A stretch of 64,000 nt of DNA. Source: an uncultured Spirochaetales bacterium. GTDB lineage: Bacteria; Myxococcota_A; UBA9160; JAFDET01. Shown one piece after another: positions 1,582-36,258 of the stretch. Position 1 is the first letter of the stretch. Every line of letters starts with the position of its first letter. Where the stretch lies: the NCBI GenBank assembly GCA_964442285.1, contig CAYTZH010000010.1, positions 33,516 through 97,515 on the forward strand. The letters run 5' to 3'. Both the position numbers and the translations under genes were made by a program. Below the pieces are notes generated by a model. It was given only the letters and a program-made list of their open reading frames with translations, was not told where the DNA came from and made no database searches.

Positions 1582-1765
1582 CGGGACCGCTGCTCCTCGC
1601 GCTGAGAACGCTCCGAGATACCAGAAGGGTACATCGTCCGCAAATCGCCCGACCTGTGGCTCGATCGCGGCGCGCGCCGGCCCGACGGCGTCCGCGGCGC
1701 GCGCGGGCGAACGTCCCTCGGGTCCGTTTCCGAGGCCTTGGGCCCGGTTCTGCGCGGTCTCGCGT

Positions 1766-1792
1766 TGGCAACGGCCTGGCAACAAAGTGGCA
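1766..1792 (+). promoter_or_regulatory. Candidate sigma54-type promoter(s): TGGCA repeated three times at exact 11-bp spacing
   Basis: The sequence TGGCAACGGCCTGGCAACAAAGTGGCA has TGGCA at 1766, 1777 and 1788. Each adjacent pair has the GG-N10-GC geometry of -24/-12 promoters (consensus TGGCAC-N5-TTGCA). It lies about 105 nt upstream of the SGNH gene ATG at 1897, in a 315-bp divergent intergenic region. Confidence 0.35.
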
Positions 1793-1896
1793 GATTCGAG
1801 GCGCAGGGCTCGTGGTGGACCCGCATCCGCCCGCCTTCCGGGTGTCCCCCGCTTCCGGACTCTCCTACAATCCGCGCCCACGGTGGGGCGCTGGTG

Positions 1897-19937: not shown

Positions 19938-21131
19938 CTAGCGGAACGCAACGGGGGACTCCGTTCCGGCGGGCGGCGGCAGCAGCCCGCTCTCGACGAG
20001 CCCCTCGGCCAACGCCTCGCCGTAGATCCGATGGCCCAGCGCGTTCCAGTGGGGGTCGAAGGGGATCCGGATCTCCGCCTGGCTCGGGATGCGCTCCTTC
20101 CAGCGTGCGTACGTGCCGAAATCCTGCACGCCCAGCTCCCGACCCAGCAGCAGGCTCCAGGGCCCGTCGGTCATGAGGACGTCGAACGCGGCGCCTTCCG
20201 CCTCGGCCGCGCGTCGCATCGCTTCGACGAGAGAGGCCGTGAGGCGGAAGACGTAGCTCTCTGGATCGGGCACGTCGACGAGGTCCTCGAAGTCGCCGTA
20301 CGAGCCGGCCCGCAGGATCTGCTGCGTCAGCTGGGGGGCGGCGGCGACGATGTGGACGAGCGCGGTGGCGAAGCCGCTGCGGCAGACGATCTCGTCTCGG
20401 ATCCAGAGGACGAAGCGCGTCTTCCACGGCACCGTCAGCTCGCGACGGTTGCCCGAAGTGTCCAGCCGGATGTTGGCAGTGTACTCGAACCGCGGGACCG
20501 GCGTCCCACGCAGCTCCGCAGTGCCGTCGGCTCGGATCCCGAAGTAGGGCTTCCCATACACTCGAAAAGGGCGATGGATCGTCATGTTGTCGTCGAGATC
20601 GTTGCCGTTGAACCAGTAGAGCACCAGGTCCGGCTCGTACTTCAATCCCTCGTCGGCGATGAACAAGTAGGCCTGGTCCGTGCCCCAGCCCCGGGTCCCG
20701 CCGTTGATGAACTCGACCGCGTGGCCCCGTTCGCGGAGGGCACGTTCGGCGACCCGGGTGAAGACCGCTTCGGGCGGAACCTCGAATCCGACCACCGCGG
20801 AGTCGCCCACCACCAGGACCCGGAAGACGTCCGGGTCGGACCGATACGGCAGCTCGCGCTCGCGGAGCCCCTTGGAGTTGATCCTGATGGGCTGCTCCAC
20901 CCCGAGCTTGACGAAGACGACCTCGCCGTCCGGGACGTGGTGCCACCCCCAGCGGGGGTGGTGGGTGAAGACGTCGTACGCCGGGTGCAGGGGGCGGATG
21001 CCCATGATCCAGCGCGAGGCCGCTTCGCCGATCGCGAAGGTGATGGCGCAGAAGAGGAGCACCTTTCCGAGCAGCGCGAGCAGCCGCCGCGGGATCGAGC
21101 GCGCTCTGCCGGGGGGTCCGTGCTCAGACAT
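19938..21131 (-). CDS. Membrane-anchored SGNH/GDSL hydrolase (paralog d, canonical motifs)
   Basis: Internal ATG at 21131 of ORF 19938..21206, overlapping the upstream stop by 8 nt. TM segment LLALLGKVLLFCAITFAIGEAA. Block I VLVVGDSAVVG, block II INGGTRGWGTDQ, block III WFNGNDL, block V FDPHWNALGH. Confidence 0.8.
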   Translation of the reverse strand: MSEHGPPGRARSIPRRLLALLGKVLLFCAITFAIGEAASRWIMGIRPLHPAYDVFTHHPRWGWHHVPDGEVVFVKLGVEQPIRINSKGLRERELPYRSDPDVFRVLVVGDSAVVGFEVPPEAVFTRVAERALRERGHAVEFINGGTRGWGTDQAYLFIADEGLKYEPDLVLYWFNGNDLDDNMTIHRPFRVYGKPYFGIRADGTAELRGTPVPRFEYTANIRLDTSGNRRELTVPWKTRFVLWIRDEIVCRSGFATALVHIVAAAPQLTQQILRAGSYGDFEDLVDVPDPESYVFRLTASLVEAMRRAAEAEGAAFDVLMTDGPWSLLLGRELGVQDFGTYARWKERIPSQAEIRIPFDPHWNALGHRIYGEALAEGLVESGLLPPPAGTESPVAFR

Positions 21132-22677
21132 GGCGTGAGACGCCCGACTCCGCCCCCTGCCAGTCCAGGTCGTCGGCCAGCGCGCGACGCGAGCCCCGCA
21201 GCGCACCCAGGGCGATGTGCATGAGGATGACCGGTGCCACCGCGAAGAGCAGGGTGCCGTACGAGGAGGCGACGTTGGCCATGAACCCGAAGCCGATCTG
21301 CTGCAGGGAGACCACCATGACGAGGACGCCGGGCGCGACGAGCGGACGCCGGCCGCAGGTCTCGTGCAGGATGCGGATGAGGAGTCCGATCAGGAACATG
21401 CCGCCGATGATCCCCGGCCAGCCGAAGTTGAGATAGAAATCGCCCACCTGGGTCGGGCCGGTGGAGGATCTGATGCCTGGCCCGGAGCCGTATACCTCCG
21501 TGATCCATCCGCCGATGTCCATGACGGGTTTGCCGGGCCAGATCAGACGCGGGACCGGGAAGAGCAGCAGGATGTAGAGGGTCTTCCCGTACTGGAACGG
21601 GACCTCGCGCGGGGTCTCGCGGATGATCACCGACGTCACCCCGACGCCATCGAAACGCCGCTTGGCGCGCTCGAACCCGTCGAGGAGGAGCGCCTCGGGC
21701 TTGTTCGAGCCCACGAACTCCTGGACCTGGGAGAGGGCCGCCCCCGGGTTCCGCGCCAGGGCGCCCACGCCCTGCGGGAGCAGGCCCTCCTTCACGAACT
21801 CCGAGATGGGATACACCCCGAAGAGCGCGAAGGCGCCGATGGCGATCAGCCGCAGGGGCAGCCGGGCCTTCAGCACCATCCATGTGACCACCACCACACC
21901 GGGCCCGATGAGCATCGCCTCCTTGGATCCGGTCAGCGTCCCGATCAGCATGTTGGCGGGGACGTTGAAGGCGAGCACGATCAACGCGCCCCGGGAGCGG
22001 TACTTCAGGTACGCATACGTCATCAAGACGTTCACGTAGATGTAGCTGGAGGCCAGCGTCGAGATGACCCCCGAGCCCAGCTCCGACGGGACGAGACCCG
22101 CCATCGACGCCAGGGCGATCGCCCAGCCCAGGGGCAGCATGATGGCGGACACGAGGATGATGTCCGCGAGGCTCCACTCGCGCTGGAAGCGGGGTACGGC
22201 CCGGCCGACCAGCCGGCCCACGGGCGAAACGTATGTCAGGAGCACCACCGACATGGCGAGCAGGCCCGCCAGCTGCCCGCGGATCACGTGCTGGGGCAGG
22301 AGGTTGCTGAAGGCGAGTCCGGCCGCGTCGGTGGGACCGAACGCCGGGATGTAGAGGAAGAAGACCGAGCTCACCCAGTAGCCCATGAAGGCGAGCAGGA
22401 AGATCGAGAGCACGAGGTGGCGGTGGCGCGGCGGGCGGAGGCGATCGAAGCCGAGGGGGATCAGGCCGAGCACGATCGTGACCACGGCCAGGGACAGCAT
22501 GGTGAAATCGGGGCCGTCGAGCTCGGCGATGAGGCCGGCCGCGAAGATGCCCACGACCAGGACCACCGTGAACACGAGGAACAGCAGGGCCTCTGCGGGC
22601 CGTTGGGCGCGCTCCGGGGCCTCGGCGGTCTCCGGCGCGGCCAGCGGGGGCAGCGCGTTGGGGTCGGGATCGGGCAT
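21124..22677 (-). CDS. Polytopic membrane protein; putative Wzy-type EPS polymerase or O-antigen-ligase-like protein
   Basis: Internal ATG at 22677 of ORF 21124..22929, with GGAG/GAGGA upstream. At least 10 hydrophobic segments plus one large hydrophilic loop (EFVGSNKPEALLLDGFERAKRRFDGVGVTSVIIRETPREVPFQYG). Confidence 0.6.
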   Translation of the reverse strand: MPDPDPNALPPLAAPETAEAPERAQRPAEALLFLVFTVVLVVGIFAAGLIAELDGPDFTMLSLAVVTIVLGLIPLGFDRLRPPRHRHLVLSIFLLAFMGYWVSSVFFLYIPAFGPTDAAGLAFSNLLPQHVIRGQLAGLLAMSVVLLTYVSPVGRLVGRAVPRFQREWSLADIILVSAIMLPLGWAIALASMAGLVPSELGSGVISTLASSYIYVNVLMTYAYLKYRSRGALIVLAFNVPANMLIGTLTGSKEAMLIGPGVVVVTWMVLKARLPLRLIAIGAFALFGVYPISEFVKEGLLPQGVGALARNPGAALSQVQEFVGSNKPEALLLDGFERAKRRFDGVGVTSVIIRETPREVPFQYGKTLYILLLFPVPRLIWPGKPVMDIGGWITEVYGSGPGIRSSTGPTQVGDFYLNFGWPGIIGGMFLIGLLIRILHETCGRRPLVAPGVLVMVVSLQQIGFGFMANVASSYGTLLFAVAPVILMHIALGALRGSRRALADDLDWQGAESGVSRHV

Positions 22678-22973: not shown

Positions 22974-24092
22974 ATGCGCCGGACGTCCCAGGCCTCGGTT
23001 CTGATCAACGCGCTCACCGTCATCGACGGTGGGGGCCGCAGCTACATCACGAACCTGCTCCGGGAGCTCGACGCGGACCCCCGGGGATTCCGCTTCACGG
23101 TGCTGGCCGCCGAAGGGCAGCTCACGGAACGGGACACGGGCCGCTCCCAGCTCCTGACGCTGCGCCTCGCCGGCGACCACCGCGCCCTGCAGCTCCTGCA
23201 GCGGGTGGCCTTCGAGCAGGTCGTCCTGCCCTGGCGGGCCCGGGCCTACGACCTCCTGTACTGCGTGGCCGACATGGTGCCCCTGGCGACCAGCGTGCCC
23301 ACCGTGGTGGCCCTGCGGAACCTCAACATCTACGACGACACCTACTACAACACGCCCCGGCTGCGCGCCCTGCGCATGCTGGTGCCGCTCGGCCTGCGCC
23401 GGGCCCGTCGCATGATCTTCCCGTCCCAGGCGGCGGCGGATGCCATCGCGCCCCGGGTCGGGATCTCCGCCGAGCAGGTTGCCGTGGTGCGCTACGGCAT
23501 CGCCCGCGAGGCCTTCGACGCCCCCGACGACCCGGTCGACGCCGGCGCTCCCTACCTCTTCCTGCCCGCCGCCCTCGAGCGCCACAAGAACATGGAGGTG
23601 CTGCTGCGCGGGCTGCCCCGGGTGTCGGACCCGACGCTCCAGCTCTGGATCGCCGGTCAGTCCCAGACCGATCCGGTCTACGCCGCCGAGATCCGGGACC
23701 TGGCGGCGAGCCTCGGCCTCGACGAGCGCGTGCGCTTCCTCGGGCCCGTGCCCTACAAGGACGTGGTGCGCTATCACCGCCACGCCGTCGCCCTGGTGTT
23801 CCCCTCGAAGATCGAGACCTTCGGGCACCCGCTGCTCGAGGCCATGCTGGCCGAGACGCCGATCGTGGCCGCCGACATTCCCGCCTTCCGCGAGATCGCC
23901 GGGGACGCGGCGCTCTTCTTCGCGCCCGACGACGTGGACGGCCTGGTCGCCGGCGTGGAGCGGGTGCTGGGCGACGCCTCCTCGCGTAGCCAGCGCGTCG
24001 AGCTGGGTCGCAAGCGCGCCTCCGAGTTCACCTGGAAGCGCTCGGTGGATCGTCTCTGCCAGGTGTTCGAGGAGGCGCTGGGGGCGGGATGA
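22974..24092 (+). CDS. Glycosyltransferase family 4
   Basis: Internal ATG at 22974 of ORF 22830..24092. GT4 C-terminal signature ALVFPSKIETFGHPLLEAMLAETPIVAADIPAFREI. Confidence 0.8.
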   Translation: MRRTSQASVLINALTVIDGGGRSYITNLLRELDADPRGFRFTVLAAEGQLTERDTGRSQLLTLRLAGDHRALQLLQRVAFEQVVLPWRARAYDLLYCVADMVPLATSVPTVVALRNLNIYDDTYYNTPRLRALRMLVPLGLRRARRMIFPSQAAADAIAPRVGISAEQVAVVRYGIAREAFDAPDDPVDAGAPYLFLPAALERHKNMEVLLRGLPRVSDPTLQLWIAGQSQTDPVYAAEIRDLAASLGLDERVRFLGPVPYKDVVRYHRHAVALVFPSKIETFGHPLLEAMLAETPIVAADIPAFREIAGDAALFFAPDDVDGLVAGVERVLGDASSRSQRVELGRKRASEFTWKRSVDRLCQVFEEALGAG

Positions 24093-25090
24093 ACCGCCAG
24101 CTCTTCGAGCACCACCCGGTGCTGGGGCATCGGTTCATCCCCGGACTGCGGGCGCGCGTGGACCACGAAGCCGGCGGCTACCTGATGCGCACGAACGCGT
24201 CGGGCTTCCGCTGCCGACACCCCTTCGAGAAGGCCCCGACACCGGGACGGCGCCGGGTGCTCCTGTTCGGCGACTCCTACACCGCCGGCGACGGCGTGAG
24301 CGACAAGCACCGCTACGGCGAGCGGCTGGAGGCGCTGCGGCCGGACCTGGAGGTCTACAACTTCGGACTCCCCGGCAGCGGCACCGATCAGCAGTACCTG
24401 GCCTGGCGGGAGTTCGCCCGGGACGTCGCCTGCGACGCCGTGGTGCTCGCCGTCATGGTGGAGAACGTCCGCCGGGTGGCCGCGCGCTACCGGCCCTACA
24501 CGGATCGCGACGGCACACCTCGCGTCTTCGCCAAGCCGTGGTTCGAGCTCGACGCCGACGGCGCGCTCACGCTCCGCGGTGTGCCCGTGCGCAAGACGCC
24601 GATCCCGGAGGCGGAGCTGCCCGCGGAAGAGCGGGCGTCGGTGGACGAGAGCGGCCGCGCCGCCTGGCTGCGCCGGGCGGTGAACCGGCTCGGCCCCGAC
24701 GTGAAGGACGTGGCCCAGCGCCTCACCCGCTACCAGCCCCTTCCCGAGTACGACGAAGCCGACCACCCCGCGTGGCGCCTGCTCTCCGAGGTGCTGCGCC
24801 GCTGGGTCGGCGAGATCGAGGCGCCGGTGCTGCTCTTCCCGATTCCCCTCTACCAGTACGTGGAGGAGACCGCCTCGGCCCAGGCCTACCGCGCCCGCTT
24901 CCGCGAGCTGGCGGACGAGACCGGCGCCGCCTTCTGCGATCCCCTGCCCGATCTCCAGCTGCCGCCGCGGCCGGAGCGGCGCGGGTTCCGCTTCCGTGAG
25001 GATCCGCACCCCACACCCGCGGCCCACGCGGTGCTCGCCCGGGCGCTCGCCCGCGGGCTGGCGCCCGTGCTCGAACGGGGCGCCGCGTGA
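24089..25090 (+). CDS. SGNH/GDSL hydrolase (paralog e; no TM anchor)
   Basis: ORF 24089..25090, in an ATGA overlap with the GT4 gene. Block I VLLFGDSYTAGDGV, block II NFGLPGSGTDQQ, block V REDPHPTPAAH. It is coupled by a GTGA overlap to the following carbamoyltransferase. Confidence 0.8.
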   Translation: MNRQLFEHHPVLGHRFIPGLRARVDHEAGGYLMRTNASGFRCRHPFEKAPTPGRRRVLLFGDSYTAGDGVSDKHRYGERLEALRPDLEVYNFGLPGSGTDQQYLAWREFARDVACDAVVLAVMVENVRRVAARYRPYTDRDGTPRVFAKPWFELDADGALTLRGVPVRKTPIPEAELPAEERASVDESGRAAWLRRAVNRLGPDVKDVAQRLTRYQPLPEYDEADHPAWRLLSEVLRRWVGEIEAPVLLFPIPLYQYVEETASAQAYRARFRELADETGAAFCDPLPDLQLPPRPERRGFRFREDPHPTPAAHAVLARALARGLAPVLERGAA

Positions 25091-26922
25091 GCCACCACGT
25101 GCTCGGCATCTCCGCCTTCTACCACGACGCGGCCGCGGCCCTGGTGCGCGACGGCGAGATCGTGGCGTGCGCCCAGGAAGAGCGCTTCACCCGCAAGAAG
25201 CACGATCCGCGCTTCCCGCGCCACGCCATCGCCTACTGCCTCGAGGAGGCCTTCATCGAGAACGACGAGCTGGATGCGGTGGTCTTCTACGACCATCCGC
25301 TGCTCACCCTGGACCGGGTGCTGCAGTCGCTGCTGGCCGTGGCCCCCGAGGGCGAGGACCTGTGGCGCAAGGCGGCCCCGTCGGTGCTCGGGGTGAAGCT
25401 CTTCGTCGACCGCTACGTGCGCGACGTGCTCAAGACCGACGTGCCCGTGCTCTTCGCCCGCCATCACCTCTCCCACGCGGCCAGTGCCTTCTACCCGTCG
25501 CCCTTCGAGCGGGCCGCCGTGCTCACGGTCGACGGCGTGGGCGAGTGGGCCACCACGAGCCTGGCCGTGGGCGAGGGGGAGCACATCGAGGTCCGCAAGG
25601 AGATCCACTACCCCCACAGCCTGGGTCTCCTCTACAGCGCCTTCACCTACTTCTGCGGCTTCAAGGTGAATTCGGGCGAGTACAAGCTGATGGGCCTCGC
25701 GCCCTATGGCGAGCCCCGCTACGCCGACGCGATCCGGCACGAGCTGATCGATACGAGGCCCGACGGCTCGTTCCGCCTGAACCTCGACGCCTTCGGCTTC
25801 CTCGACAGCGACCGCATGACGAACGCCCGCTTCGACGCCCTCTTCGGGGGGCCGCCGCGGGCGCCCGAGTCGCGCATCAGCCGCCGCGAGATGGACCTGG
25901 CGGCGTCGGTGCAGGCGGTCACCGAGGACGTCATGCGCGGTCTCGCGCGCCACGCCCTGGAGCTCGCGGGCTGCCGCGACCTCTGTCTGGCCGGCGGCGT
26001 GGCGCTCAACTGCGTGGCCAACGGCAAGCTGCTGCTCGAGGGCGTGGCCGACCGCGTCTGGATCCAGCCGGCCGCCGGCGACGCGGGGGGCGCCCTGGGC
26101 GCGGCGCTGGTGGGGAGCCTGCGCCGCTTCGGGGCCCGGCGGGTGCGCTCGCCGGGGGGCGGCGACGCCCAGCACGGGAGCTACCTGGGCCCGGCCTGGT
26201 CCGCTGCCGAGATCCGCGCCTTCCTGGACCGCCACGACTACCCCTTCGAGGTCGTGGAGGGCCTCGACGCGCGCGCGGAGCGGGTGGCGGCGGCGCTCGC
26301 CGACGGGCAGGTCGTCGGCTGGATGAGCGGCCGCATGGAGTTCGGGCCGCGCTCGCTCGGCGGCCGCTCGATCCTGGGCGACCCCCGCAACCCCGAGACC
26401 CAGGTGCGCATGAACCGGAAGATCAAGTACCGGGAGTCGTTCCGGCCCTTCGCGCCCAGCGTGCTGGCCGAGCGCTGCGGCGACTGGTTCGAGCTCGACG
26501 CGGAGAGCCCCTACATGCTGCTGGTGGCCCCCGTGCGGGAGGGGCTGCGCAAGTCGCCGCCGCCGCCCGAGACCGACGACGCCGACGACCTGCTCGCCCG
26601 GGTGCGCCAGGCCCGCAGCGAGATCCCGGCGGTCACCCACGTGGACTACAGCGCGCGGGTGCAGACGGTGCACCGGGAGACGAACCCCGCGTACCACGCG
26701 GTGCTGTCCGCCTTCGAGCGCCTCACCGGCTGTCCCGTGGTGGTCAACACCTCCTTCAACGTGCGCGGCGAGCCCATCGTCTGCTCGCCGGAGGACGCCT
26801 ATCGCTGCTTCATGCGCACCGAGATGGACCTGCTGGTGCTCGGCGACTGCCTGCTGCGCAAGGCGGAGCAGCCGCCGATCCTGGACGACGAGTCGTGGAA
26901 GGACGAGTATGAGCTCGACTGA
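25087..26922 (+). CDS. Carbamoyltransferase (NodU/CmcH family), paralog 2
   Basis: ORF 25087..26922, GTG start. Sequence HHVLGISAFYHDAAAALVRDGEIVACAQEERFTRKKHD, then HHLSHAASAFYPSPF and TVDGVGEW, plus the C-terminal domain VNTSFNVRGEPIVCSPEDA. Confidence 0.9.
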   Translation: MSHHVLGISAFYHDAAAALVRDGEIVACAQEERFTRKKHDPRFPRHAIAYCLEEAFIENDELDAVVFYDHPLLTLDRVLQSLLAVAPEGEDLWRKAAPSVLGVKLFVDRYVRDVLKTDVPVLFARHHLSHAASAFYPSPFERAAVLTVDGVGEWATTSLAVGEGEHIEVRKEIHYPHSLGLLYSAFTYFCGFKVNSGEYKLMGLAPYGEPRYADAIRHELIDTRPDGSFRLNLDAFGFLDSDRMTNARFDALFGGPPRAPESRISRREMDLAASVQAVTEDVMRGLARHALELAGCRDLCLAGGVALNCVANGKLLLEGVADRVWIQPAAGDAGGALGAALVGSLRRFGARRVRSPGGGDAQHGSYLGPAWSAAEIRAFLDRHDYPFEVVEGLDARAERVAAALADGQVVGWMSGRMEFGPRSLGGRSILGDPRNPETQVRMNRKIKYRESFRPFAPSVLAERCGDWFELDAESPYMLLVAPVREGLRKSPPPPETDDADDLLARVRQARSEIPAVTHVDYSARVQTVHRETNPAYHAVLSAFERLTGCPVVVNTSFNVRGEPIVCSPEDAYRCFMRTEMDLLVLGDCLLRKAEQPPILDDESWKDEYELD

Positions 26923-27265: not shown

Positions 27266-28504
27266 TCAGCGGCCCGCCAGCCCGGCGAGGAGGCCCGCGA
27301 AGCGGGTGCCGATCACGCGGCGGTCGAAGGCGCCCGCCACGAAGGCGCGGCCGCGGGCGCCGTCGCGGTCGGCCCGGGCGGGGTCGCGCAGGTAGGCGAG
27401 CATGGCGTCCGCCAGGGCGTCGGGATCGCCGGGCGTCACCACGGTTCCCCCCTCGGCCCGCTCCACCGTCTCCGCTCCCTCGCCGCCCGCCTGATACAGG
27501 ACCGGCCGGCCGCTGGCGAGGGACTCGTAGAGCTTCGACGGCACGGTGCTCGTGTCCTTGCGGGGGCGCAGGGTGACCAGCACGCCGGTGGCGCGACGCA
27601 GCAGCGAGAAGACCGCGGCCCGCGGCTGGCGCGGCACGAACACGACCCGATCGAGCGCCCGTCGCGCGACCTGCGCGCGCAAGTCCGCCTCGCGGGGCCC
27701 CTCGCCCACGAGGACGAGCTGGGTCGTGGCGTAGGCCTCGGGATCCTTCTCCCGCAGGCGTGCGAAGGCGTCCACGACGATGTCCAGGCCCTGGGGCGTG
27801 TTCAGGATGCCCGCGTAGGCGAAGTAGCGGCCGTCGGGCGCGAGCGGGGCGAAGTCCGCCGGCAGCGGCTGCTTCGACTCGGCGTCGAAGAGGGCCACGT
27901 CGACCCCGTTGGGGAGCACGTGGATCTTCTCTGGGGAGACGCCGATCTCCACCAGCCGCGCCTTCCAGCCCTCGGTGACGGCGCTGATGGCGTCGGCCGA
28001 GCGGTAGAGGGCGCGCGCGAGGGCCTCGAAGGCCCAGATCAGGACCGGGTTGGTGAGGCGACCGCTCTGCACGATGGCCTCGGGCCAGATGTCGCGCACG
28101 TCGAGCACCATGGGCACCCGGCGGGTCCACGCCGCCACCAGGCCCGGGATGCCCACGCTCGGCGGCGGCGTGGTGGCGACCACCACGTCCGGGCGCAGGC
28201 TCCGGTCGAAGAGCACCCGCAGGCAGGCCGAGAGCAGGAAGCTGGCGTAGGCCAGCGGGCGACCGCCGCGACCCGAACGTGTGTAGATCGGGCAGCGCTT
28301 CACGGTGACGCCGTCGCGGGTCTCGCTGAAGAAGCCCCGGCCGCGGTAGCCCTCGTGGATCGCACCGCCCGGGAAGTGGGGGAGGCCGGTCACCACCGTC
28401 ACGTCGTGGCCGTCGGCGATCCAGCGCTGGGCGAAGTCGTGGAAGCGTCCCGCCGGGGCGCCCATGTCGGGCGGGAAGTACTGCGAGACGACGAGGATCC
28501 TCAT
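27266..28504 (-). CDS. Glycosyltransferase family 4 (WcaI-like)
   Basis: Internal ATG at 28504 of ORF 27266..29977, in an ATGA overlap with the upstream stop. N-terminus MRILVVSQYFPPDMGAPAGRFHDFAQRW is typical of WcaI-type GT4. Also VPSKLYESLASGRPVL. Confidence 0.8.
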   Translation of the reverse strand: MRILVVSQYFPPDMGAPAGRFHDFAQRWIADGHDVTVVTGLPHFPGGAIHEGYRGRGFFSETRDGVTVKRCPIYTRSGRGGRPLAYASFLLSACLRVLFDRSLRPDVVVATTPPPSVGIPGLVAAWTRRVPMVLDVRDIWPEAIVQSGRLTNPVLIWAFEALARALYRSADAISAVTEGWKARLVEIGVSPEKIHVLPNGVDVALFDAESKQPLPADFAPLAPDGRYFAYAGILNTPQGLDIVVDAFARLREKDPEAYATTQLVLVGEGPREADLRAQVARRALDRVVFVPRQPRAAVFSLLRRATGVLVTLRPRKDTSTVPSKLYESLASGRPVLYQAGGEGAETVERAEGGTVVTPGDPDALADAMLAYLRDPARADRDGARGRAFVAGAFDRRVIGTRFAGLLAGLAGR

Positions 28505-29913
28505 TCGTCGACGAGCTCGGGAAGCTGCAGGGGCGCGCAGGGGAAGACCAGGGCGTCGGCCTCGGGAAGGCCGCGCCCGAGGGTCTCGACCAGCGCCGCC
28601 CAGTCGCGGAAGAGGTGCCCGCCGCGGTACTTGCGCCGGAAGCCCCAGTCCGGGAAGCGCTCGGACCAGACCAGGGTCCGGGCGTCGCCGGGCGACGGGG
28701 CGGGCGCGGCCACGTCGGGCGGCAGCCGGCCTTCGCCCGCGGCGAAGGCGGCGTAGGCCAGGTGGTTCATGTGGAAGTAGCAGGTGCGCGCCGCGAGCAC
28801 GGGCGTCGGCAGGGCCCGGGCCAGGCCCCGCAGCCAGGCGGACCAGGCGCGGGGCTCGCGGAGCCAGCCGGGCAGGTTGCGCAGCAGCCGGCGCGGGTCG
28901 ACGCCGCTGCCCATGCCCATGCCGTGGTAGAAGACCCCGTCGCTGGCGGCGTTCACCGCCACGGTCCAGGGCGCGTCGAACTTCTTCGCGATGGTGATGC
29001 TCTTGCCCATCTGGATCGGATCCGTGTCGAGGGGGAAGGCGTTCACGACCACCGCCTGCGCGCGGTCGGCCAGCGCCCGCGGCACGGGCGTGCGGCCGAT
29101 CTCCCGGGCGCGGCGGGCGGCGGCCCGATGGGCCTCCACCGGGTCGCCCGTCCAGAGGCCCGCCAGCTCGGCCCGACCGTTCATCACCGCGCACACCGCG
29201 GCATGCACGCCCACCTGGCGCGCGACGGCCTCGGACCAGGCGCGCCGGTCGAGGCGGCCCCCGGCCGCCTCGAGGCTGCCGACCTCCCGGGGCGGCAGGC
29301 TGCCGTGGAAGTGGGCGATGGTCAGGCGGCCCGCGACCCCGGGCACCACCATCTTGGCGCCGCCGCCGAAGCCGGTCTCGTTGTGGGGGATCACGCCGCC
29401 CACGACGATCCGCAGGTCCGCCTCGAGGAAGTGCCGGTTCAGGTAGACCGGGCCGCCCGCCACGTGTCCCACGAAGCGGACGTCGGGTCCCATGAAGTCG
29501 TGCATGACCACGGCGCCCGCCCGCTCCGCGGCCGGACCGAGCTTGCGCGCGGTCTCGTCGGCGGTCATGGGGCGGTGGGCGGCGGTGCCCACCAGGAGGG
29601 TGACGGCGTCCCCGCCGAGGCCGCCCGCGGCGAGGGCGTCCAGCAGCCGGGGCAGGAAGCGGTGCACGGGCGTCGGCCGGGTGAGGTCGTCCACGGCGAT
29701 CACCGCGCAGCGGCGCCCCCGGGCCAGCTCCGTCAGGGGCGGGCCGCCCACGGGTGCCGCGAACGCCCGCGCGATCGCCGCCTCGTCCGCGGCCGGGGCA
29801 TCCTCCGGGTCGAGCCGATGCAGCCGCCAGCCCGGCGGGAACGCGAGCTCCCGGTCGGGGAGATCGGTCCAGGCGCCGAACGGAAGGGCCACGCGCGGAG
29901 GCTCGGGGCTCAT
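28501..29913 (-). CDS. LarA-like (DUF2088, lactate-racemase N-terminal domain family) protein
   Basis: ORF 28501..29913. Motifs AVDDLTRPTP (the D-x-T-R-P motif), GTAAHRPMT, and GVIPHNETGFGGGAKMVVPG followed by TIAHFH. These correspond to the His/Lys/His positions I recall for the nickel-pincer-nucleotide site of LarA. Confidence 0.65.
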   Translation of the reverse strand: MSPEPPRVALPFGAWTDLPDRELAFPPGWRLHRLDPEDAPAADEAAIARAFAAPVGGPPLTELARGRRCAVIAVDDLTRPTPVHRFLPRLLDALAAGGLGGDAVTLLVGTAAHRPMTADETARKLGPAAERAGAVVMHDFMGPDVRFVGHVAGGPVYLNRHFLEADLRIVVGGVIPHNETGFGGGAKMVVPGVAGRLTIAHFHGSLPPREVGSLEAAGGRLDRRAWSEAVARQVGVHAAVCAVMNGRAELAGLWTGDPVEAHRAAARRAREIGRTPVPRALADRAQAVVVNAFPLDTDPIQMGKSITIAKKFDAPWTVAVNAASDGVFYHGMGMGSGVDPRRLLRNLPGWLREPRAWSAWLRGLARALPTPVLAARTCYFHMNHLAYAAFAAGEGRLPPDVAAPAPSPGDARTLVWSERFPDWGFRRKYRGGHLFRDWAALVETLGRGLPEADALVFPCAPLQLPELVDE

Positions 29914-30051: not shown

Positions 30052-31263
30052 ATGGCGCCTCCGGCAGCGAGTCTCCCCGGAGCGGTGGTCTTCACCGTGT
30101 CGCCCACGGGTCTCGCCGTGGCGCGCTCGCTCGCGCCCCGGGGCGTCGCGGTCTGGGGCGTCGACCCCGACCGCTGGGAGATCGGCCACGCTTCCCGCTG
30201 GTTGCGCCGCGATCCGCGCTTCTCCTTCCTGCCGCCGGGCCCGGCGCTGCTGGAGGCCCTGCTGGCGTTCGGGGCCGAGCAGGCCCAGCGGCCGGTGCTC
30301 TTCCTGGGCGGCGACCCCTACATGGACTTCGTCGCCGAGCACCACGAGCGGCTCCGGGATCGCTTCGTGCTGGCCGAATCCATGCGACCCGAGGTCCTGA
30401 GCGTCCTGCTCAACAAACGGACCTTCTACGAGCGTTGTCAGCGTCTGGGGGCGGCCATGCCCACCACCTATTTCCCGAGCGATGTCGCCGAGGCGCGCGC
30501 GGCGTCGGCGGAGCTGCGCTACCCGGCCATCGTGAAGCCCACCCACGCCCACCTCGTGCGCCAGCGACTCGGCGGCAACAAGCTGGTGGAAGTGGGCGAC
30601 GCCGAAGCCCTCGTCGCCTGGTGGGAGCGCTTCCGCGCGTGGGGCACCGACTCGGTGCTGCAGGAGATCATCCCCGGGCCCGAGCGCAACATCATGGTGG
30701 GCGGGGTCTACATGGATGCGCAGCTCCGCTGTCGATCCCTCTTCACCGGCCGGAAGAATCGGCAGTATCCGCCCTGGTACGGCTCCGGCTCCTACATGGA
30801 GGCCTGCTGGTCCGACGAGATCGCCGCGCTCTCCGAGGACCTCCTGCAGCGCCTCGAGTACCGCGGCGTGGCCGGGACCGAGTTCAAGTGGGACGAGCGG
30901 GACGGCGTCTGGAAGCTGATCGAGGTGAATCCGCGTCCCACGCTCTGGTTCGCCCTCACCCGCGCCGCCGGCGTCGACGTGGTCTGGGACGCCTACTGCG
31001 ATCTGCTCGGTCGTCCCAACGAGGTGCACGTCAATTGCCAGGACGATCGCGCCCGCTGGCAGCTCCTGGTCCGCGACCTGGTGAGCAGCTGGCACTTCCT
31101 GCGCCACGAGGACCTCGGCCTGCGGGAGTACTGGCGCACCGTGGTGGATCCCCGCGGCAAGGAGTACGCGGTGCTCTCCCTCCGGGATCCGGGCACCCTG
31201 TTCGCGTATCCTCTGAACAGCTTCTCCAAGTGGTGGAACCACGTCCGTCGGAGATCCTCGTGA
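30052..31263 (+). CDS. ATP-grasp domain ligase (carboxylate-amine ligase-like)
   Basis: Internal ATG at 30052 of ORF 28615..31263. Motifs RYPAIVKPTH, SVLQEIIPGPERN and KLIEVNPRP, matching the ATP-grasp K, E-x-I-x-G and E-x-N elements. Confidence 0.75.
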   Translation: MAPPAASLPGAVVFTVSPTGLAVARSLAPRGVAVWGVDPDRWEIGHASRWLRRDPRFSFLPPGPALLEALLAFGAEQAQRPVLFLGGDPYMDFVAEHHERLRDRFVLAESMRPEVLSVLLNKRTFYERCQRLGAAMPTTYFPSDVAEARAASAELRYPAIVKPTHAHLVRQRLGGNKLVEVGDAEALVAWWERFRAWGTDSVLQEIIPGPERNIMVGGVYMDAQLRCRSLFTGRKNRQYPPWYGSGSYMEACWSDEIAALSEDLLQRLEYRGVAGTEFKWDERDGVWKLIEVNPRPTLWFALTRAAGVDVVWDAYCDLLGRPNEVHVNCQDDRARWQLLVRDLVSSWHFLRHEDLGLREYWRTVVDPRGKEYAVLSLRDPGTLFAYPLNSFSKWWNHVRRRSS

Positions 31264-32234
31264 GCGTCGGCAGCGATCCGATCCCGAACATGATGACCGT
31301 CGACGTGGAGGACTGGTTCCACATCCTCGACGCCGACGAGGCGCCGGACCGGGAGGGCTGGGCCGCGCTCGAGTCGCGGGTCGTCGCCAACACCGAGCGC
31401 CTGCTCGCGCTCTTCGCGGCGGCGGAGGTGCGCACCACCTGCTTCATCGTCGGCTGGGTGGCCTGGCGCTGCCCGGAGCTCGTGCGGCGGATCGCCGACG
31501 CCGGCCACGAGGTGGCCTCCCACAGCTTCTGGCACGAGATCCTTCACCGCCACGACCGCGCCTCCCTGGCCCGCGACCTCGAGCGCTCCCGGAAGCTGCT
31601 GCAGGACCTCTCCGGGCAGCCGGTGCGGGGCTTCCGCGCCCCCGGCGCCTCGGTCACGGCGGAGACGGCCTGGGCCTTCGACGTGCTGGTGGAGCAGGGC
31701 TTCGCCTACGACGCCTCGATCTGCCCCGGCGTGTCGAGCCACGGCGGCTTCCGCTCGCCCTTCCCGGGGCCCCACCGGGTGCGCTGCGAGGCCGGCGAGC
31801 TGGTGGAGATCCCGTCCTCCACCGCCGAGCTGGGCGGGCGCCGGATCCCCTACGCCGGCGGCGGCTACCTGCGCCTGTTCCCGTACCTGCTGATCCGGGG
31901 CGCCCTGCGTCGGGACAACCGCGCCGGTCGCCCCGCCAACGTGTACCTGCATCCGCGGGAGATCGATCCGGCGCAGCCGCGCATGGCGCTGCCCGCCAAG
32001 CGCCGCTTCAAGTACTACGTGGGCCTGCGCAGCACCGAGGAGAAGGTGCGGGCGCTGCTGCGCGACTTCCGCTGGACCTCGTGCGCGGACTGGATCGCGC
32101 GCTTCGGGCCGGCCGAGGGGACCGACGTCCTGGACGTGCGCGCGACCGCGGCGGAGCACCCGCCCGCGCCCGATCCGGCGCGCGTACCGCCCGCGCCCCC
32201 GCTCGAGGCCTACGCCGAGAGCGTGGCCTCGTAG
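31260..32234 (+). CDS. XrtA/PEP-CTERM-locus-type polysaccharide deacetylase (CE4/DUF3473-like)
   Basis: Part of ORF 29754..32234. The GTG at 31260 overlaps the ATP-grasp stop (GTGA); alternative ATGs at 31290 and 31293. Motifs MMTVDVEDWFH, VASHSFWHE (H-x-x-x-H) and VRGFRAPGAS. Confidence 0.8.
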   Translation: MSVGSDPIPNMMTVDVEDWFHILDADEAPDREGWAALESRVVANTERLLALFAAAEVRTTCFIVGWVAWRCPELVRRIADAGHEVASHSFWHEILHRHDRASLARDLERSRKLLQDLSGQPVRGFRAPGASVTAETAWAFDVLVEQGFAYDASICPGVSSHGGFRSPFPGPHRVRCEAGELVEIPSSTAELGGRRIPYAGGGYLRLFPYLLIRGALRRDNRAGRPANVYLHPREIDPAQPRMALPAKRRFKYYVGLRSTEEKVRALLRDFRWTSCADWIARFGPAEGTDVLDVRATAAEHPPAPDPARVPPAPPLEAYAESVAS

Positions 32235-34858
32235 ACGCCCGTCACCCCGTCCACCGCCTGCAGGGCCACCTCGCGCACCCGGCGGCGCACGCCGTCGGCG
32301 GCGAGCGCCGCCGGCACGTCGACGCTGGCCCGTCGGTAGGGGAGGGAGGAGCGCAGCCGCAGGGTGTCGCCCGCACGCTCGGCGGTGATGCCGCTCGCCG
32401 CGCCGTCGACGGCGTCCGCCGCCACCACCAGCTCCCAGGCCGCGTCCCGCGCGTCCACCCGGAAGCGCAGCGGGCCGGGCTCCACCGGCGAGCGCCGCGC
32501 CGGCCAGCGCTCGCCGTCGCGCTCGATCCAGGCCTCGCGGACCCGTCCGAAGAGCCAGGCCGGGGGCAGCACCGTCACCTCCCGGGGCTGCTCCGCCGAC
32601 ACCGGGATGTCGCGGCCCACCAGCCGCAGCACGTAGCGATAGGTCTCCTGCCCCGCGTCGGGCGCCGCCAGCTCCACCACCTCCTCGTCGCGCCAGGCCA
32701 GCAGCCGGGGCGTGTAGCGCTCGTACCAGGCGAGCACCGCGTCCCGGGTGCGGGAGAAGCGTACCTCCGGGTGGGCGCGGGCCACGTGGGCCAGGTGGTC
32801 GCGGATCGTGGCCCAGTCGCCGTAGCCCGCCTCGAGGGAGTCCCACTGCCGACCCATGCGCCAGTTAATGAACTTGTCGTGGGTCATGGCGCAGATCACG
32901 TGCACGCCGGGGAGCGCGCCGCCCTCCGGCGTGCGCAGGGCGTCGATCCGACCGTCGACGTAGCCGTTCAGCACGCCCACGTCCGAGAGGAAGTCGGCCT
33001 CGATGTTGAACTCGGCGCGGATCTCCAGGGCCCGCATGCGCTCGGGGCCGGCCGCCGGCTGGCGCGGATCGCCGTCGACCGGGTAGGTGGCCCGGGCCAT
33101 CGGCCGGTGGTAGAGCCGCGGCTTCGGCACGTCGCTGTCCGCCAGCAGCTCGAGCCGCTGGAGCAGGGCGAGGGAGCGCGCGCGCTCGGGGGCGTCCTCG
33201 CCGAAGTCGAAGGAGCCGGCGCGGAAGCAGGTGACCCGGAAGCGCGGGTCGCCCAGGCGCCCGAGGGCCTCGAGCGCGCCGATGCCGCGCCAGGTGGCCC
33301 AGGCGCGGGAGCCCTCCAGCGCGGCGTCGCCCAGGGCGGGGAAGGCGCGGCTCCAGAACCCGCGCTGGGGCAGCGGCGTCTCGAGGAACGCCGCGGGCGT
33401 GGTCACCCGGTCCGACTCGGGATCGAAGCCGTGGCAGAAGACGTCGGTGCCCGGGTCGTGGAAGGCGTGGCAGTGCAGGCCCAGGTCGTTGCCGTTCGCC
33501 ACCGCCTCGATCAGGTGCTCGGCGCTGGCGTCGGCGACCGCCTGCCAGGTGTCGCCGCGGGACTGGCGCGCGGCCCAGGGCACCAGGTGGAGGGAGCCCA
33601 CGTCCACCATGTGGGTCCAGGCCGCGCCCTGCTCGTTGGCCACCTGCTCGGCGAAGCGCGACTTGTCCACCAGGGTCTTGCGCGCCGCCTCGGCGTCGGT
33701 GGCCTCGCGCTCGTCGTAGAGCTCGTGGTCCTCGGTGATCGTGTAGTGGATCTCGCCAGGCTCCCGGTCGGGAACGCCGAACGCCAGCGACAGCCGCTCC
33801 ACCCGGGCTCCCGAGGCCAGCGCCAGCTCCAGGCGCCACGGCCGACCGCCGGCCACGGCGTCGGGCCGGAGAGCGGTCACGCGCACCGTGAGCGACGTGT
33901 TGCCCTCCGCCACCGGAATCCGCCCCCGCGGCTCGCAGAGGAGTCCGTGGCCGCAGGGCTCGAGCACGTGGAGCCCGGCCGCACCCCCGGAGACCTGGAC
34001 CCCGACCTCGATCTCGACGGATTCGCCGACCTCGAGCGCGGCCGGGCGGGTGCCGGAGACCGACAGCCTCAGGTGGGCCACGTGCCCGCTCCCGGACAGG
34101 CGCTCCAGACCGACGATGGCCGCGTCGCACCCGGGGTCGAGGGCCAGGGCGCGGCCCCAGGCCTCCCGGGCGCGCTCCGGCGCCGCGTGCTCGCAGGCGT
34201 CGCCCAGCTCGGACCAGACGGCGACGTCCAGGGGGTCCAGGTCCGCGGCGCGCTCCAGGGCGCCCTCCGCCAGGCTCGCGACGCCGGAGGCCAGGGCGCG
34301 GCGGCCGAGGGCGAGCCAGAGGTCCGCGCGACCGCCGTCGAGCCGGCCGGCCTCGTCGAGCAGGCGCTCCTCCCGCGCGCGGTCGCCGGCCCGGGCCGCC
34401 GCGGCGGCCAGGTGGAGCAGGCCGTCCACCCGGCTGCCCAGGGGCGCGTCCGACTTGCGCAGCGCGGCCTCGGCGTCGCCGAAGCGCCCCTCGGCCAGGA
34501 GCTTCTCGAGGTCCTCGGAGGGGCCGCCGCCCTGGCGACGCGAGCGGCGCCAGGCCAGGGTGGTGCGCAGGGCGCCGAGCACCGAGGTCTCGAGGGTGTT
34601 GTGGGCGAGGTGCTCGAAGGCGTCCCGGTGCCGGGCCGCCGCGCCCGCATCGCCCCGGGCCTCGGCGCGGGCGGCGAGCAGCCGGTGGGCGTCCCGCGCC
34701 CCGGGGTGGATGCGCAAGGCGGCCCAGGCGGCCCCGGGCAGCCAGGACCCCACCCGCACGAGGCCCGCCGCGGTCAGCTCCCGCGCCGCCCGCCGCAGCA
34801 CGAAGGCGTCGTGGGCCGTGACCTGGCGCAGCAGCAGCGCGAGCTCGCGTCGCTTCAC
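32210..34858 (-). CDS. 882-aa multidomain hypothetical protein: N-terminal TPR-like region, middle beta-sandwich-like region, C-terminal divergent deacetylase-like region
   Basis: Part of ORF 32210..35383. The GTG at 34858 overlaps the upstream stop (GTGA). There is no signal peptide or TM segment. TPR-like helices occupy roughly residues 1-300. C-terminal motifs IHYTITEDHELY, LGLHCHAFHD and CFRAGSFDFG parallel TVDVEDWF, SHSFWHE and FRAPGAS of the neighbouring deacetylase. The fold assignment is an inference. Confidence 0.55.
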   Translation of the reverse strand: MKRRELALLLRQVTAHDAFVLRRAARELTAAGLVRVGSWLPGAAWAALRIHPGARDAHRLLAARAEARGDAGAAARHRDAFEHLAHNTLETSVLGALRTTLAWRRSRRQGGGPSEDLEKLLAEGRFGDAEAALRKSDAPLGSRVDGLLHLAAAAARAGDRAREERLLDEAGRLDGGRADLWLALGRRALASGVASLAEGALERAADLDPLDVAVWSELGDACEHAAPERAREAWGRALALDPGCDAAIVGLERLSGSGHVAHLRLSVSGTRPAALEVGESVEIEVGVQVSGGAAGLHVLEPCGHGLLCEPRGRIPVAEGNTSLTVRVTALRPDAVAGGRPWRLELALASGARVERLSLAFGVPDREPGEIHYTITEDHELYDEREATDAEAARKTLVDKSRFAEQVANEQGAAWTHMVDVGSLHLVPWAARQSRGDTWQAVADASAEHLIEAVANGNDLGLHCHAFHDPGTDVFCHGFDPESDRVTTPAAFLETPLPQRGFWSRAFPALGDAALEGSRAWATWRGIGALEALGRLGDPRFRVTCFRAGSFDFGEDAPERARSLALLQRLELLADSDVPKPRLYHRPMARATYPVDGDPRQPAAGPERMRALEIRAEFNIEADFLSDVGVLNGYVDGRIDALRTPEGGALPGVHVICAMTHDKFINWRMGRQWDSLEAGYGDWATIRDHLAHVARAHPEVRFSRTRDAVLAWYERYTPRLLAWRDEEVVELAAPDAGQETYRYVLRLVGRDIPVSAEQPREVTVLPPAWLFGRVREAWIERDGERWPARRSPVEPGPLRFRVDARDAAWELVVAADAVDGAASGITAERAGDTLRLRSSLPYRRASVDVPAALAADGVRRRVREVALQAVDGVTGVYEATLSA

Positions 34859-36258
34859 GCCAGGCGGCCCGTCTCGAGCTGCGACACCACGGCGCGGAAC
34901 TTCCCGTTGGGAAGCCGCGGGATGGCGTCGACCACCTCGTAGGCGATCTCGATCTCGTGACCCAGGCGGCTGCGGAACTCGGCGTCGAGCTCCTTGCGGG
35001 CCGCGTCGTCGAAGCCCGCCCGCGGGACCAGGCGCACCACGATCCGGTCCCGGCTGGACTGCACGATCTGCGCCTCCTTCACCTCGAGGGCGTCCTTGAA
35101 GACGTGGTCCATCCGCCCGATGCGGCGGCCATCGGGGGTCACCACGAAGTCCTCGATGCGCCCGTCGATCCGCTCCAGGAGCGGGCGCGCCCGACCACAG
35201 GGACAGCTCGCCCGCTTGAGCAGCGTGGCCACGTCGCCGGTGCGGTAGCGCAGCAGCGGCATGGCGCGATTGGCGAAGCCGGTGGAGATCACCTCGCCGC
35301 GCACCCAGTCCTCGGTCTCCTCGTGGGGATCGATCTCCACCACGCCGAACTCGGTGTCGACGTGGTAGTGGCCGGCCGGGCACTGCAGCACCGATACGCT
35401 GAACTCGGAGTTGCCGTAGCGGTCGGCCACGACGGCGCCGGTCGCCTGGGCGATCCGATCGCGATGGAAGTCCAGCAGCGTCTCCGACGACGGGAACACG
35501 GCGCGGGGCGCCGCGGCGCCGAGGTCGATCCCGCGGTCGAGCAGGTGCTGGGAGATCAGTCCCAGCGAGGAAGGATAGCCCTGCCAGAAGCGGTAGCCGG
35601 GTCGCTGCAGCTCCCGGGCGTAGGCGTCCAGGAACTCGGCGCGCATGTGGTAGAGCGAGAAGATCATCCGGGAGCGCGCCCGGTCGTAGCGCCAGAACGG
35701 CGGGCGGGCCTGGGTGAAGGGGACCGCCATCTGGCCGCCGAAGGCGGCGAAGCGGTCGCCGAGCTTCACGCCGTACCAGCCCCGCTGGCGCCAGATCACG
35801 CCGTACTCCCAGCCCAGCGCCTCCCGGGTGTGGAAGAGCCGCAGGGCCGTGCCGGTGGTGCCGCTCGAGTGCCCGCCGATGATCTGGCGCTCCGGGATGC
35901 CCTCGCTCTTCAGCGCCTCGGCGTTCTCCCGCACCGTCTCCTTGGGGAGGAAGGGGACCTTGGCCAGATCGTCGCTGCCGCGGATCGAGGCCGGATCGAT
36001 GCCCTCCCGCGTGAACAGGGTGCGGTAGTAGGGCACCGTGCGAGCCGCCCAGAGGATCATCTCCCGCAGCCGCCGGTCCTGGTCCTCGCGGATCTGCTCC
36101 GGGGAGTTGAAGTCGGTCCGCTCGAGCTCGTCGAGGATGCGGCGGAACGGTGCGCCGAAGCGGTGCCGGTAGCTGCGCCAGCCCCAGGCCGCCACCGCCA
36201 GCTCCTGGGCGGCGATGGGAAGCCGGTCGTACAGGCGGTGCATGCGGCTTCGCGCCAT
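34855..36258 (-). CDS. CapK / F390-synthetase / phenylacetate-CoA-ligase-like adenylate-forming enzyme (paralog 2, intact P-loop)
   Basis: ORF 34855..36258. P-loop GGHSSGTTGTAL, motif LLRYRTGDVATL, and C-terminal LPNGKFRAV. Confidence 0.75.
   Translation of the reverse strand: MARSRMHRLYDRLPIAAQELAVAAWGWRSYRHRFGAPFRRILDELERTDFNSPEQIREDQDRRLREMILWAARTVPYYRTLFTREGIDPASIRGSDDLAKVPFLPKETVRENAEALKSEGIPERQIIGGHSSGTTGTALRLFHTREALGWEYGVIWRQRGWYGVKLGDRFAAFGGQMAVPFTQARPPFWRYDRARSRMIFSLYHMRAEFLDAYARELQRPGYRFWQGYPSSLGLISQHLLDRGIDLGAAAPRAVFPSSETLLDFHRDRIAQATGAVVADRYGNSEFSVSVLQCPAGHYHVDTEFGVVEIDPHEETEDWVRGEVISTGFANRAMPLLRYRTGDVATLLKRASCPCGRARPLLERIDGRIEDFVVTPDGRRIGRMDHVFKDALEVKEAQIVQSSRDRIVVRLVPRAGFDDAARKELDAEFRSRLGHEIEIAYEVVDAIPRLPNGKFRAVVSQLETGRLA

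Follow-up and report, generated by a model that had tools for sequence, protein, structure and literature searches.

A LarA-superfamily gene within an XrtA/PEP-CTERM-type exopolysaccharide locus of an uncultured bacterium

The established roles of the LarA superfamily, which comprises nickel-pincer nucleotide (NPN)-dependent racemases and epimerases of 2-hydroxy acids, concern free 2-hydroxy acids and are mostly catabolic, together with the supply of D-lactate for peptidoglycan in lactobacilli. No function has been assigned to roughly half of the superfamily (PMC11770544). The present account deals with a LarA-like gene in a stretch of 64,000 nucleotides from an uncultured bacterium, probably a myxobacterium (contig CAYTZH010000010.1, positions 33,516 to 97,515), referred to below as the window. 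The whole 64 kb is one XrtA/PEP-CTERM-type (exosortase) exopolysaccharide (EPS) locus, within which the LarA-like gene is coupled to a glycosyltransferase gene and faces a divergent pair of genes encoding an ATP-grasp ligase and a polysaccharide deacetylase. Its product is a bona fide LarA-superfamily protein, for which a role in the tailoring of the polysaccharide is tentatively proposed. The features central to the argument are as follows.

28501..29913, minus strand: LarA-like gene (DUF2088; NPN-dependent 2-hydroxy-acid racemase/epimerase superfamily), 470 aa, with an insert of about 50 residues in the C-terminal domain (about residues 332-380)
27266..28504, minus strand: WcaI-like GT4 glycosyltransferase, 412 aa
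29914..30051, no strand: divergent intergenic region of 138 bp between the LarA-like/GT4 and ATP-grasp/deacetylase pairs
30052..31263, plus strand: stand-alone ATP-grasp ligase, 403 aa, COG3919-like
31260..32234, plus strand: XrtA-system polysaccharide deacetylase (CE4 plus DUF3473), 324 aa, TIGR03006 at 298 bits against a cut-off of 276

The LarA-like gene and its coupled neighbours

The initial annotation had reported an open reading frame of 470 aa at 28501-29913, which exists as described and is here assigned to the minus strand. The G+C content of the window is 71%, and the G+C of the third codon positions of this frame (0.96) matches the third-position bias of real genes in the window; a strong Shine-Dalgarno sequence, GAAGGAGGAG, precedes its ATG at 29913. 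The gene lengths in the window agree with those called independently on Logan assemblies of this organism. The four motifs quoted in that annotation are all present in the translation, namely DDLTRPTP (residues 75-82), GTAAHRP (109-115), PHNETGFGGGAKMVVPG (176-192) and TIAHFH (198-203). Membership of the LarA family, which it had claimed and for which it had suggested a hidden Markov model search, is borne out by a match of 140.5 bits to Pfam Lar_N (PF09861) against a cut-off of 23.3. By sequence and profile, the closest solved structures are Mar2, the broad-spectrum racemase of Isosphaera and LarA of Lactiplantibacillus plantarum. Further, an AlphaFold (AF2) model built on an alignment of the protein's own clade, with a predicted local distance difference test score (pLDDT) of 93.9 and a predicted template-modelling score of 0.92, has the two-domain LarA fold over its full length: all 19 of its 19 significant matches in the PDB belong to the LarA family, with template-modelling (TM) scores of 0.72/0.79 to 9EID.

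The TGA of the LarA-like gene overlaps the ATG of the GT4 gene (ATGA; ...GAC GAA TGA / ATG AGG ATC...), and across the divergent region the GTG start of the deacetylase gene overlaps the stop of the ATP-grasp gene (GTGA). Both the coupling to a WcaI-like GT4 gene, whose product has a WcaI-family glycosyltransferase as its best NCBIfam match, and the position opposite an ATP-grasp/deacetylase pair had been described before and hold on re-examination. Within the 138-bp divergent region there is no sigma-70-like or terminator-like site, and the sigma-54 consensus is absent there and not enriched; an Rfam search of the whole window returned 0 matches.

The fold of the ATP-grasp protein is confirmed by a profile match to PDB 2PN1 at 1e-13, followed by CPS, Ddl, VanA, RimK and LysX, and its AF2 model (pLDDT 92.6) reaches a TM score of about 0.6 to PurK and biotin carboxylase. 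Some of its homologues bear the name 'D-aspartate ligase', which was assigned automatically. An attempt to derive its substrate from structure was abandoned, as it led to generic ATP-grasp relatives only and named neither an acyl substrate nor a nucleophile. An N-terminal hydrophobic segment is found in none of the four proteins (LarA-like, GT4, ATP-grasp and deacetylase), and this, taken together with the need of the ATP-grasp enzyme for ATP, leads one to expect cytoplasmic chemistry on nucleotide- or lipid-linked intermediates.

Active site and specificity signature

Profile alignment to L. plantarum LarA1 (5HUQ, its numbering checked residue by residue) sets D72, R75, H108, H174, K184, H200, Q295 and K298 opposite D76, R79, H113, H177, K187, H203, Q301 and K304 of the LarA-like protein. 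The NPN-binding R75, K184 and H200 and the catalytic D72, H108, H174 and K298 of LarA1 are all conserved, and the equivalents of His108, His174, Lys184 and His200 that the initial annotation had expected are found as H113, H177, K187 and H203. Across 38 clade members, with identity down to 34%, the NPN-binding R79, K187 (equivalent to the covalent tether) and H203 (equivalent to the nickel ligand) are invariant, as are D76 and H113, and H177, Q301 and K304 are conserved in at least 90%. The Q295/K298 pair of LarA1 is one that we take to bind the substrate carboxylate, and the conservation of Q301 and K304 argues for a free alpha-hydroxy-carboxylate as the substrate. With such an intact site, the LarA-like enzyme is predicted to invert C2 of a free alpha-hydroxy acid. 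K298 of LarA1 is itself listed as catalytic (PMC7583248).

The residues that set the known subfamilies apart tell a less familiar story. In characterised enzymes the loop after the catalytic His reads F-F in lactate racemases, Y-K in Mar2, E-S or E-V in GntE and Y-F in 2-hydroxyglutarate racemases, and the residue preceding the catalytic Lys is V in LarA, Q in Mar2 and G in GntE2 (PMC7583248; PMC11770544). The LarA-like protein has N178-E179 in the loop and G303 before the Lys. It reaches no NCBIfam equivalog cut-off, each being missed by about 300 bits or more: 149.4 bits against 460 for lactate racemase (NF033504), whose F-F loop is not present; 152 against 462 and 168 against 500 for the malate racemases LarAH5 and LarAH6 (NF052595 and NF052593); 118 against 540 for LarAH10; and 17.7 against 500 for the hexonate 2-epimerases GntE/LarAH18-20 (NF052594), whose E-V/S loop is not found as such, N-E being similar to it in character.

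Moreover, the alpha13-alpha14 region, which in known LarA enzymes supplies specificity residues of the W358/T359 type, is replaced by a segment about 50 residues longer, with a GMGMGSG motif, extra helices and the conserved residues R342, R376 and Y379. As this region is a clade-specific insert, the alpha14 positions of malate racemases (H/Q-K) are not alignable to the LarA-like protein. When residues 326-470 served as the query, 18 of 1.84 billion representative proteins matched at E <= 1e-3, and no canonical LarA was among them. Judged by these features, the protein fits no characterised LarA subfamily and belongs to a clade that is rare and had not been described.

Among the characterised enzymes, the closest in sequence is Mar2/LarAH6 of Thermoanaerobacterium thermosaccharolyticum (6D6Z, 7S91), which is the best match to a solved structure (E 1.9e-30 with a single sequence, 3.5e-51 with a profile), corresponds to the best NCBIfam model and has the two-domain fold and the cofactor-binding and catalytic residues in common with the LarA-like protein. 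It differs in its Y-K loop, in the Gln before its Lys and in alpha13-alpha14, where it bears the malate-binding Lys and the LarA-like protein has the insert; moreover, Mar2 is catabolic and has no polysaccharide context. GntE2/LarAH20 of Thermotoga maritima (4NAR) is alike in its polar acidic loop after the catalytic His and in the Gly before the catalytic Lys (PMC7583248), but the match to 4NAR is weak (E 7.5e-9, N-domain only) and GntE2, too, is catabolic. Overall similarity points to malate racemases, and the acidic loop and Gly to a polyhydroxylated, non-dicarboxylic acid, so that the identity of the acid cannot be read from these residues; the Arg-bearing insert may leave room for a larger substrate or one with an additional anionic group.

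Conservation of the neighbourhood and the surrounding locus

The best matches to the LarA-like protein, 60-68% identical, are labelled Myxococcota or 'Deltaproteobacteria', and further members of the clade come from Planctomycetia, Anaerolineales, Verrucomicrobiota and Phycisphaerae. A WcaI-like GT4 gene lies directly downstream of the LarA-like gene in seven of seven distinct Myxococcota loci, and this linkage is confined to the Myxococcota. The ATP-grasp/deacetylase pair is found in the same loci in varied arrangements (divergent, convergent or 7 kb away), which speaks for selection for linkage and not for inherited synteny. Of 14 independent EPS-type loci, which span Myxococcota, Planctomycetia, Anaerolineales, Verrucomicrobiota and one further lineage and differ in gene order, 13 have an ATP-grasp gene within 10 kb of the LarA-like gene, and 11 have a DUF3473 deacetylase gene in that range. 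In the distant lineages the GT4 gene is gone, and an ATP-grasp gene whose product is 20-28% identical to that of the window stands directly downstream in three loci (L003, L011 and L014); in another (L085) the stop of the LarA-like gene overlaps the start of the ATP-grasp gene. DUF3473 deacetylase genes are again nearby, always within polysaccharide clusters. The couplings on which the initial annotation had dwelt are real, with the refinement that the partner most widely shared across phyla is the ATP-grasp enzyme, along with the DUF3473 deacetylase, and that the GT4 enzyme is fixed only within the Myxococcota.

The loop signature follows the context, as an H-N/A-E loop with invariant Glu is found only in EPS-linked members, and relatives elsewhere carry other residues or lack catalytic ones. 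One such relative, encoded in a Phycisphaerae metagenome-assembled genome (L015/L086, 10001..11407; 468 aa, 46% identical), has lost the equivalents of H177, Q301 and K304, and the EPS partners are absent from its surroundings; the protein may derive from the clade as a single-histidine form or as a non-racemase. Another, of 442 aa (L004), lies among PhyH dioxygenases and transporters. The large group of sponge-associated Poribacteria/Caldilineaceae relatives (L016-L084; about 404 aa, 35-39% identity) keep all catalytic residues and have an H-G/K-S/A loop, without the lid insert or the N-E loop; TRAP transporter (DctQ/DctM) genes follow in 45 of 69 loci and an enolase-superfamily (MR_MLE) gene is nearby in 24, so that the group looks like a catabolic acid-uptake unit. 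The absence of both the lid insert and the N-E loop and the TRAP-transporter context led us to reject the transfer of a function from these relatives. On one further contig (P0021; JGI 3300075153) the LarA-like gene is followed by genes for a GNAT-type acetyltransferase-like protein, an ATP-grasp protein and class II and class I fumarases. The fumarases, as a source of L-malate, may fit a malate-type substrate, though this is a single case and maybe a coincidence.

Sampling from the side of the partners gives a complementary view. In three loci (L090, which lies beside an exosortase gene, L091 and L092) ATP-grasp orthologues of 58-60% identity have the deacetylase gene immediately downstream and no LarA-like gene within 10 kb, and on a 2.55-Mb contig (L093; ERZ25074506, 7305..10948) the ATP-grasp (67%), WcaI-like GT4 (46%), deacetylase (63%) and WecB (72%) proteins are encoded together without a LarA-like gene. 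These loci rule out that the ATP-grasp/deacetylase pair is always accompanied by a LarA-like gene. The sizes of the families are nested, with more than 3,400 matches for the deacetylase, about 230 for the ATP-grasp protein and about 75 for the EPS-type LarA-like protein. The LarA-like gene is therefore an optional addition to a tailoring module of wider distribution. As a separate observation, the GT4 protein is more diverged in L093 (46%) than in loci that bear the LarA-like gene (60-75%), which hints that GT4 co-varies with the presence of the racemase.

The locus around the central genes extends to both sides, and its other relevant features are listed here.

32210..34858, minus strand: large TPR-like protein, 882 aa, part of the conserved locus
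34855..36243, minus strand: CapK/PaaK/F390-synthetase-like adenylate-forming ligase, 462 aa
36263..38410, minus strand: fusion of Zn-dependent alcohol-dehydrogenase-like and GFO/IDH/MocA oxidoreductase, 715 aa
38398..39888, minus strand: DUF362 protein, 496 aa
39903..40610, minus strand: EpsI, TIGR02914 at 96.3 bits against 42.8
40562..41473, minus strand: exosortase XrtA, TIGR03109 at 215.4 bits against 208
1..2484 (minus strand), 25087..26922 (plus strand) and 41677..43416 (minus strand): three NodU/CmcH-type carbamoyltransferases
1606..3039, 8420..9589, 9615..11264, 19938..21206 and 24089..25090: SGNH/GDSL/AlgX-like genes, at least five

EpsI and exosortase XrtA define the type of the locus. 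As in classical XrtA/PEP-CTERM EPS loci, XrtA, EpsI and TIGR03006 score above their cut-offs and are joined by sigma-54 regulators and by chain-length, export and TPR proteins. Clearly related to their models but below the equivalog cut-offs are the chain-length determinant (TIGR03007, 228.8 against 278.9), the export protein (TIGR03027, 141.8 against 180) and the PEP-CTERM-box response regulator (TIGR02915, 404.5 against 502.6). The window contains two sigma-54 response regulators and a histidine kinase; for polymerisation and export, a chain-length determinant, an export protein, an outer-membrane protein, a PrsT-like TPR protein, a Wzy-like polymerase and a flippase; for precursors, WecB, UDP-sugar dehydrogenase, GDP-mannose dehydratase, DegT and epimerases; and for assembly, several GT4 genes and one GT11 gene. 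The three carbamoyltransferases and at least five SGNH/GDSL/AlgX-like genes predict an unusually heavily O-carbamoylated and O-acylated polysaccharide. Unlike classical loci, no FemAB-like (TIGR03019) gene was seen among the window genes scanned, and an ATP-grasp gene is coupled to the deacetylase gene instead. According to the TIGRFAM descriptions, a FemAB gene is the normal neighbour of TIGR03006; on the L093 contig the neighbours were ATP-grasp and GT4 genes.

The genes for the DUF362 protein, the alcohol-dehydrogenase/GFO fusion and the CapK-like ligase are kept together in one related locus (L002) and in two source contigs (L088 and L089), and the fusion is also kept in L001, L002 and the P0021 contig. 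The LarA N-terminal domain has DUF362 as its sister family, and the published LarA tree uses DUF362 as outgroup (PMC11770544, Fig. 2). A weak pairwise alignment of the DUF362 protein with the LarA-like protein (E 0.013) sets its His and Lys opposite H177 and K187, and no solved relative of it was found by sequence. The AKR-type nickel-pincer family NphT (PMC13524815) was considered as a relative and rejected, NphT being an unrelated aldo-keto reductase.

A possible role in polysaccharide tailoring

Taken together, these observations lead us to lean, tentatively and with considerable reserve, towards the LarA-like protein as a catalytically competent NPN-dependent C2 racemase or epimerase of an alpha-hydroxy acid, accessory to cytoplasmic polysaccharide tailoring in XrtA/PEP-CTERM and other Wzx/Wzy-type EPS loci. 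In the pathway envisaged, an amino sugar in an intermediate linked to a nucleotide or a lipid would be de-N-acetylated by the CE4/DUF3473 enzyme; the LarA-like enzyme would take a polar 2-hydroxy acid in the stereoisomeric form that metabolism offers and invert it to the form required; the ATP-grasp enzyme would activate a carboxylate of the acid as an acyl phosphate and ligate it to the freed amine; and the translationally coupled WcaI-like GT4 enzyme would continue the assembly of the chain. We infer the loading of the cofactor, the identity of the acid and the four steps with their order through guilt by association in uncultured bacteria.

Several precedents make such a pathway plausible. 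ATP-grasp enzymes pass a carboxylate through an acyl phosphate to a nucleophile, usually an amine (PMC4155827), and this matches the amine that a CE4 de-N-acetylase yields on an amino sugar. In O-polysaccharides, amino sugars are N-acylated with 4-D-malyl or L-malyl groups, the D or L configuration of the malyl group separates the near-identical polymers of Pseudoalteromonas rubra and Vibrio vulnificus, and amide-linked 2-hydroxyglutaric acid is also known in polysaccharides (PMC3210612). Malate and 2-hydroxyglutarate are proven substrates of LarA homologues (PMC7583248). The logic of racemase and ligase is likewise known: the racD-aslA operon of Lactococcus and Enterococcus co-encodes a racemase and an ATP-grasp D-aspartate ligase, which acylates an amine of the peptidoglycan precursor via an acyl phosphate (PMC4155827), and LarA rescues the supply of D-lactate for the D-Ala-D-Lac ligase in L. 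plantarum (Goffin 2005, as cited in PMC11770544), where a D-hydroxy acid made by LarA is built by the ATP-grasp ligase Ddl into an envelope precursor (PMC4155827). Neither precedent is a close copy. RacD is a cofactor-independent amino-acid racemase, its acceptor is the peptidoglycan stem peptide and not a de-N-acetylated sugar, and AslA is likened to the ATP-grasp protein of the window at the level of the superfamily only; in comparison with L. plantarum LarA1, the F-F loop is absent here, no larB, larC or larE gene lies close by, and an exopolysaccharide takes the place of peptidoglycan. The larA gene of L. plantarum sits in a larA-E operon with the cofactor genes and not in a polysaccharide locus.

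A number of observations weigh against the proposed role. The initial annotation had remarked that larB, larC and larE are missing from the window, and domain scans agree, as no AIRC/LarB, DUF111/LarC or PP-loop/LarE domain occurs in the probable genes of the 64 kb; nor is any of the three genes present in the Pfam-annotated flanks of six relatives (10 kb on either side). The ATP-grasp protein resembles only generic folds (PurK, biotin carboxylase, CPS and 2PN1). E179 and G303 are closer to hexonate epimerases than to malate or 2-hydroxyglutarate racemases, so that the acid is not predictable, and the clade-specific lid insert with its conserved Arg could mean a larger, activated substrate. 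All carriers of the clade are uncultured metagenome-assembled genomes, and the clade is known from sequence alone. Finally, the module occurs without the LarA-like gene in four of the four loci sampled from the partner side, which marks the LarA-like step as dispensable for the module. An accessory role would explain this dispensability, since loci that lack the gene would rely on the isomer, or on a different acid, already supplied by metabolism.

The signature residues also suit a different enzyme, one that would epimerise C2 of an aldonic-type or polyhydroxylated acid, perhaps nucleotide-, phospho- or lipid-activated, and so provide a rare acidic building block for the coupled GT4 enzyme, with the ATP-grasp and deacetylase enzymes acting at another step. 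The polar, acidic N-E loop and the Gly before the Lys are nearer to GntE2 than to the lactate and malate racemases, R342, R376 and Y379 of the insert could bind an extra anionic group, the LarA-like and GT4 genes are translationally coupled in the window and adjacent in all Myxococcota loci, and the locus offers a GFO/IDH/MocA-type oxidoreductase fusion, a UDP-sugar dehydrogenase and WecB. However, the score against the hexonate-epimerase model is very low and the protein as a whole is most similar to malate and lactate racemases, the GT4 linkage is limited to the Myxococcota whereas that of the ATP-grasp gene crosses phyla, and no characterised LarA homologue in the LarA literature surveyed uses an activated substrate; moreover, we know of no aldonic acid residues in the repeat units of bacterial EPS. 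Such a sugar-acid epimerase is rather unlikely. Still more doubtful, and in our estimate improbable, is the suggestion that the lid insert adapts the NPN site to a large, activated or glycan-borne substrate, such as a nucleotide- or undecaprenyl-diphosphate-linked sugar with a 2-hydroxy-acyl or sugar-acid moiety, which would be epimerised on the polysaccharide intermediate; were it true, this would be the first nickel-pincer enzyme in glycan biosynthesis to act on a non-metabolite substrate. On this reading the DUF362 protein of the locus might take part as well, as another enzyme that needs a cofactor and has so far escaped recognition.

It is very unlikely that the protein acts in the EPS pathway as a binding or scaffold subunit or in another hydride transfer, its NPN chemistry having been lost or the cofactor never being supplied. 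The failure to find larB, larC and larE, whether in the window or around the genes of relatives, the remodelled C-terminal specificity region and the loss of H177, Q301 and K304 in the clade-adjacent Phycisphaerae protein would all be in keeping with such a loss. Yet the eight positions that serve cofactor binding and catalysis vary little or not at all in the EPS-linked clade at 34-68% identity, the pattern of an active enzyme, and the Phycisphaerae protein, having lost its residues, has also lost its EPS partners. LarA homologues are, moreover, commonly encoded away from larBCE. In a COG survey, 88% of Myxococcota carried a larAH gene (PMC11770544). The chance that the gene is a catabolic hydroxy-acid racemase placed in the EPS locus by coincidence and functionally unrelated to it is slim indeed: characterised LarA homologues are mostly catabolic, the related Poribacteria-type clade is tied to TRAP transporters and an enolase-superfamily enzyme, and one relative stands beside fumarases, but the linkage to the ATP-grasp and deacetylase genes survives rearrangement in at least five lineages, starts and stops overlap with EPS genes both in the window and in L085, and the EPS-type members have no catabolic-type transporter or dehydrogenase next to them.

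The initial annotation had regarded a role of LarA homologues in EPS synthesis as not established, and the LarA literature searched is of one mind with it: superfamily surveys with tables of genomic context and taxonomy, structural papers and the 2026 NphT paper give no link to GT4, CE4 or ATP-grasp genes or to polysaccharide synthesis. Enzymes of this kind were known before; the novelty lies in the clade, with its specificity signature and lid insert, and in the anabolic EPS setting. If the proposed role is true, nickel-pincer chemistry would extend to the decoration of exopolysaccharides, through a clade linked genetically to enzymes of polysaccharide tailoring in five or more bacterial lineages. 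The LarA-like enzymes would then be a candidate source of the D- and L-hydroxy-acyl groups (malyl, 2-hydroxyglutaryl and similar) on bacterial polysaccharides, for which we know of no assigned enzyme. Further, it would be predicted that these uncultured, mostly Myxococcota-type bacteria depend on nickel for the production of their exopolysaccharide.

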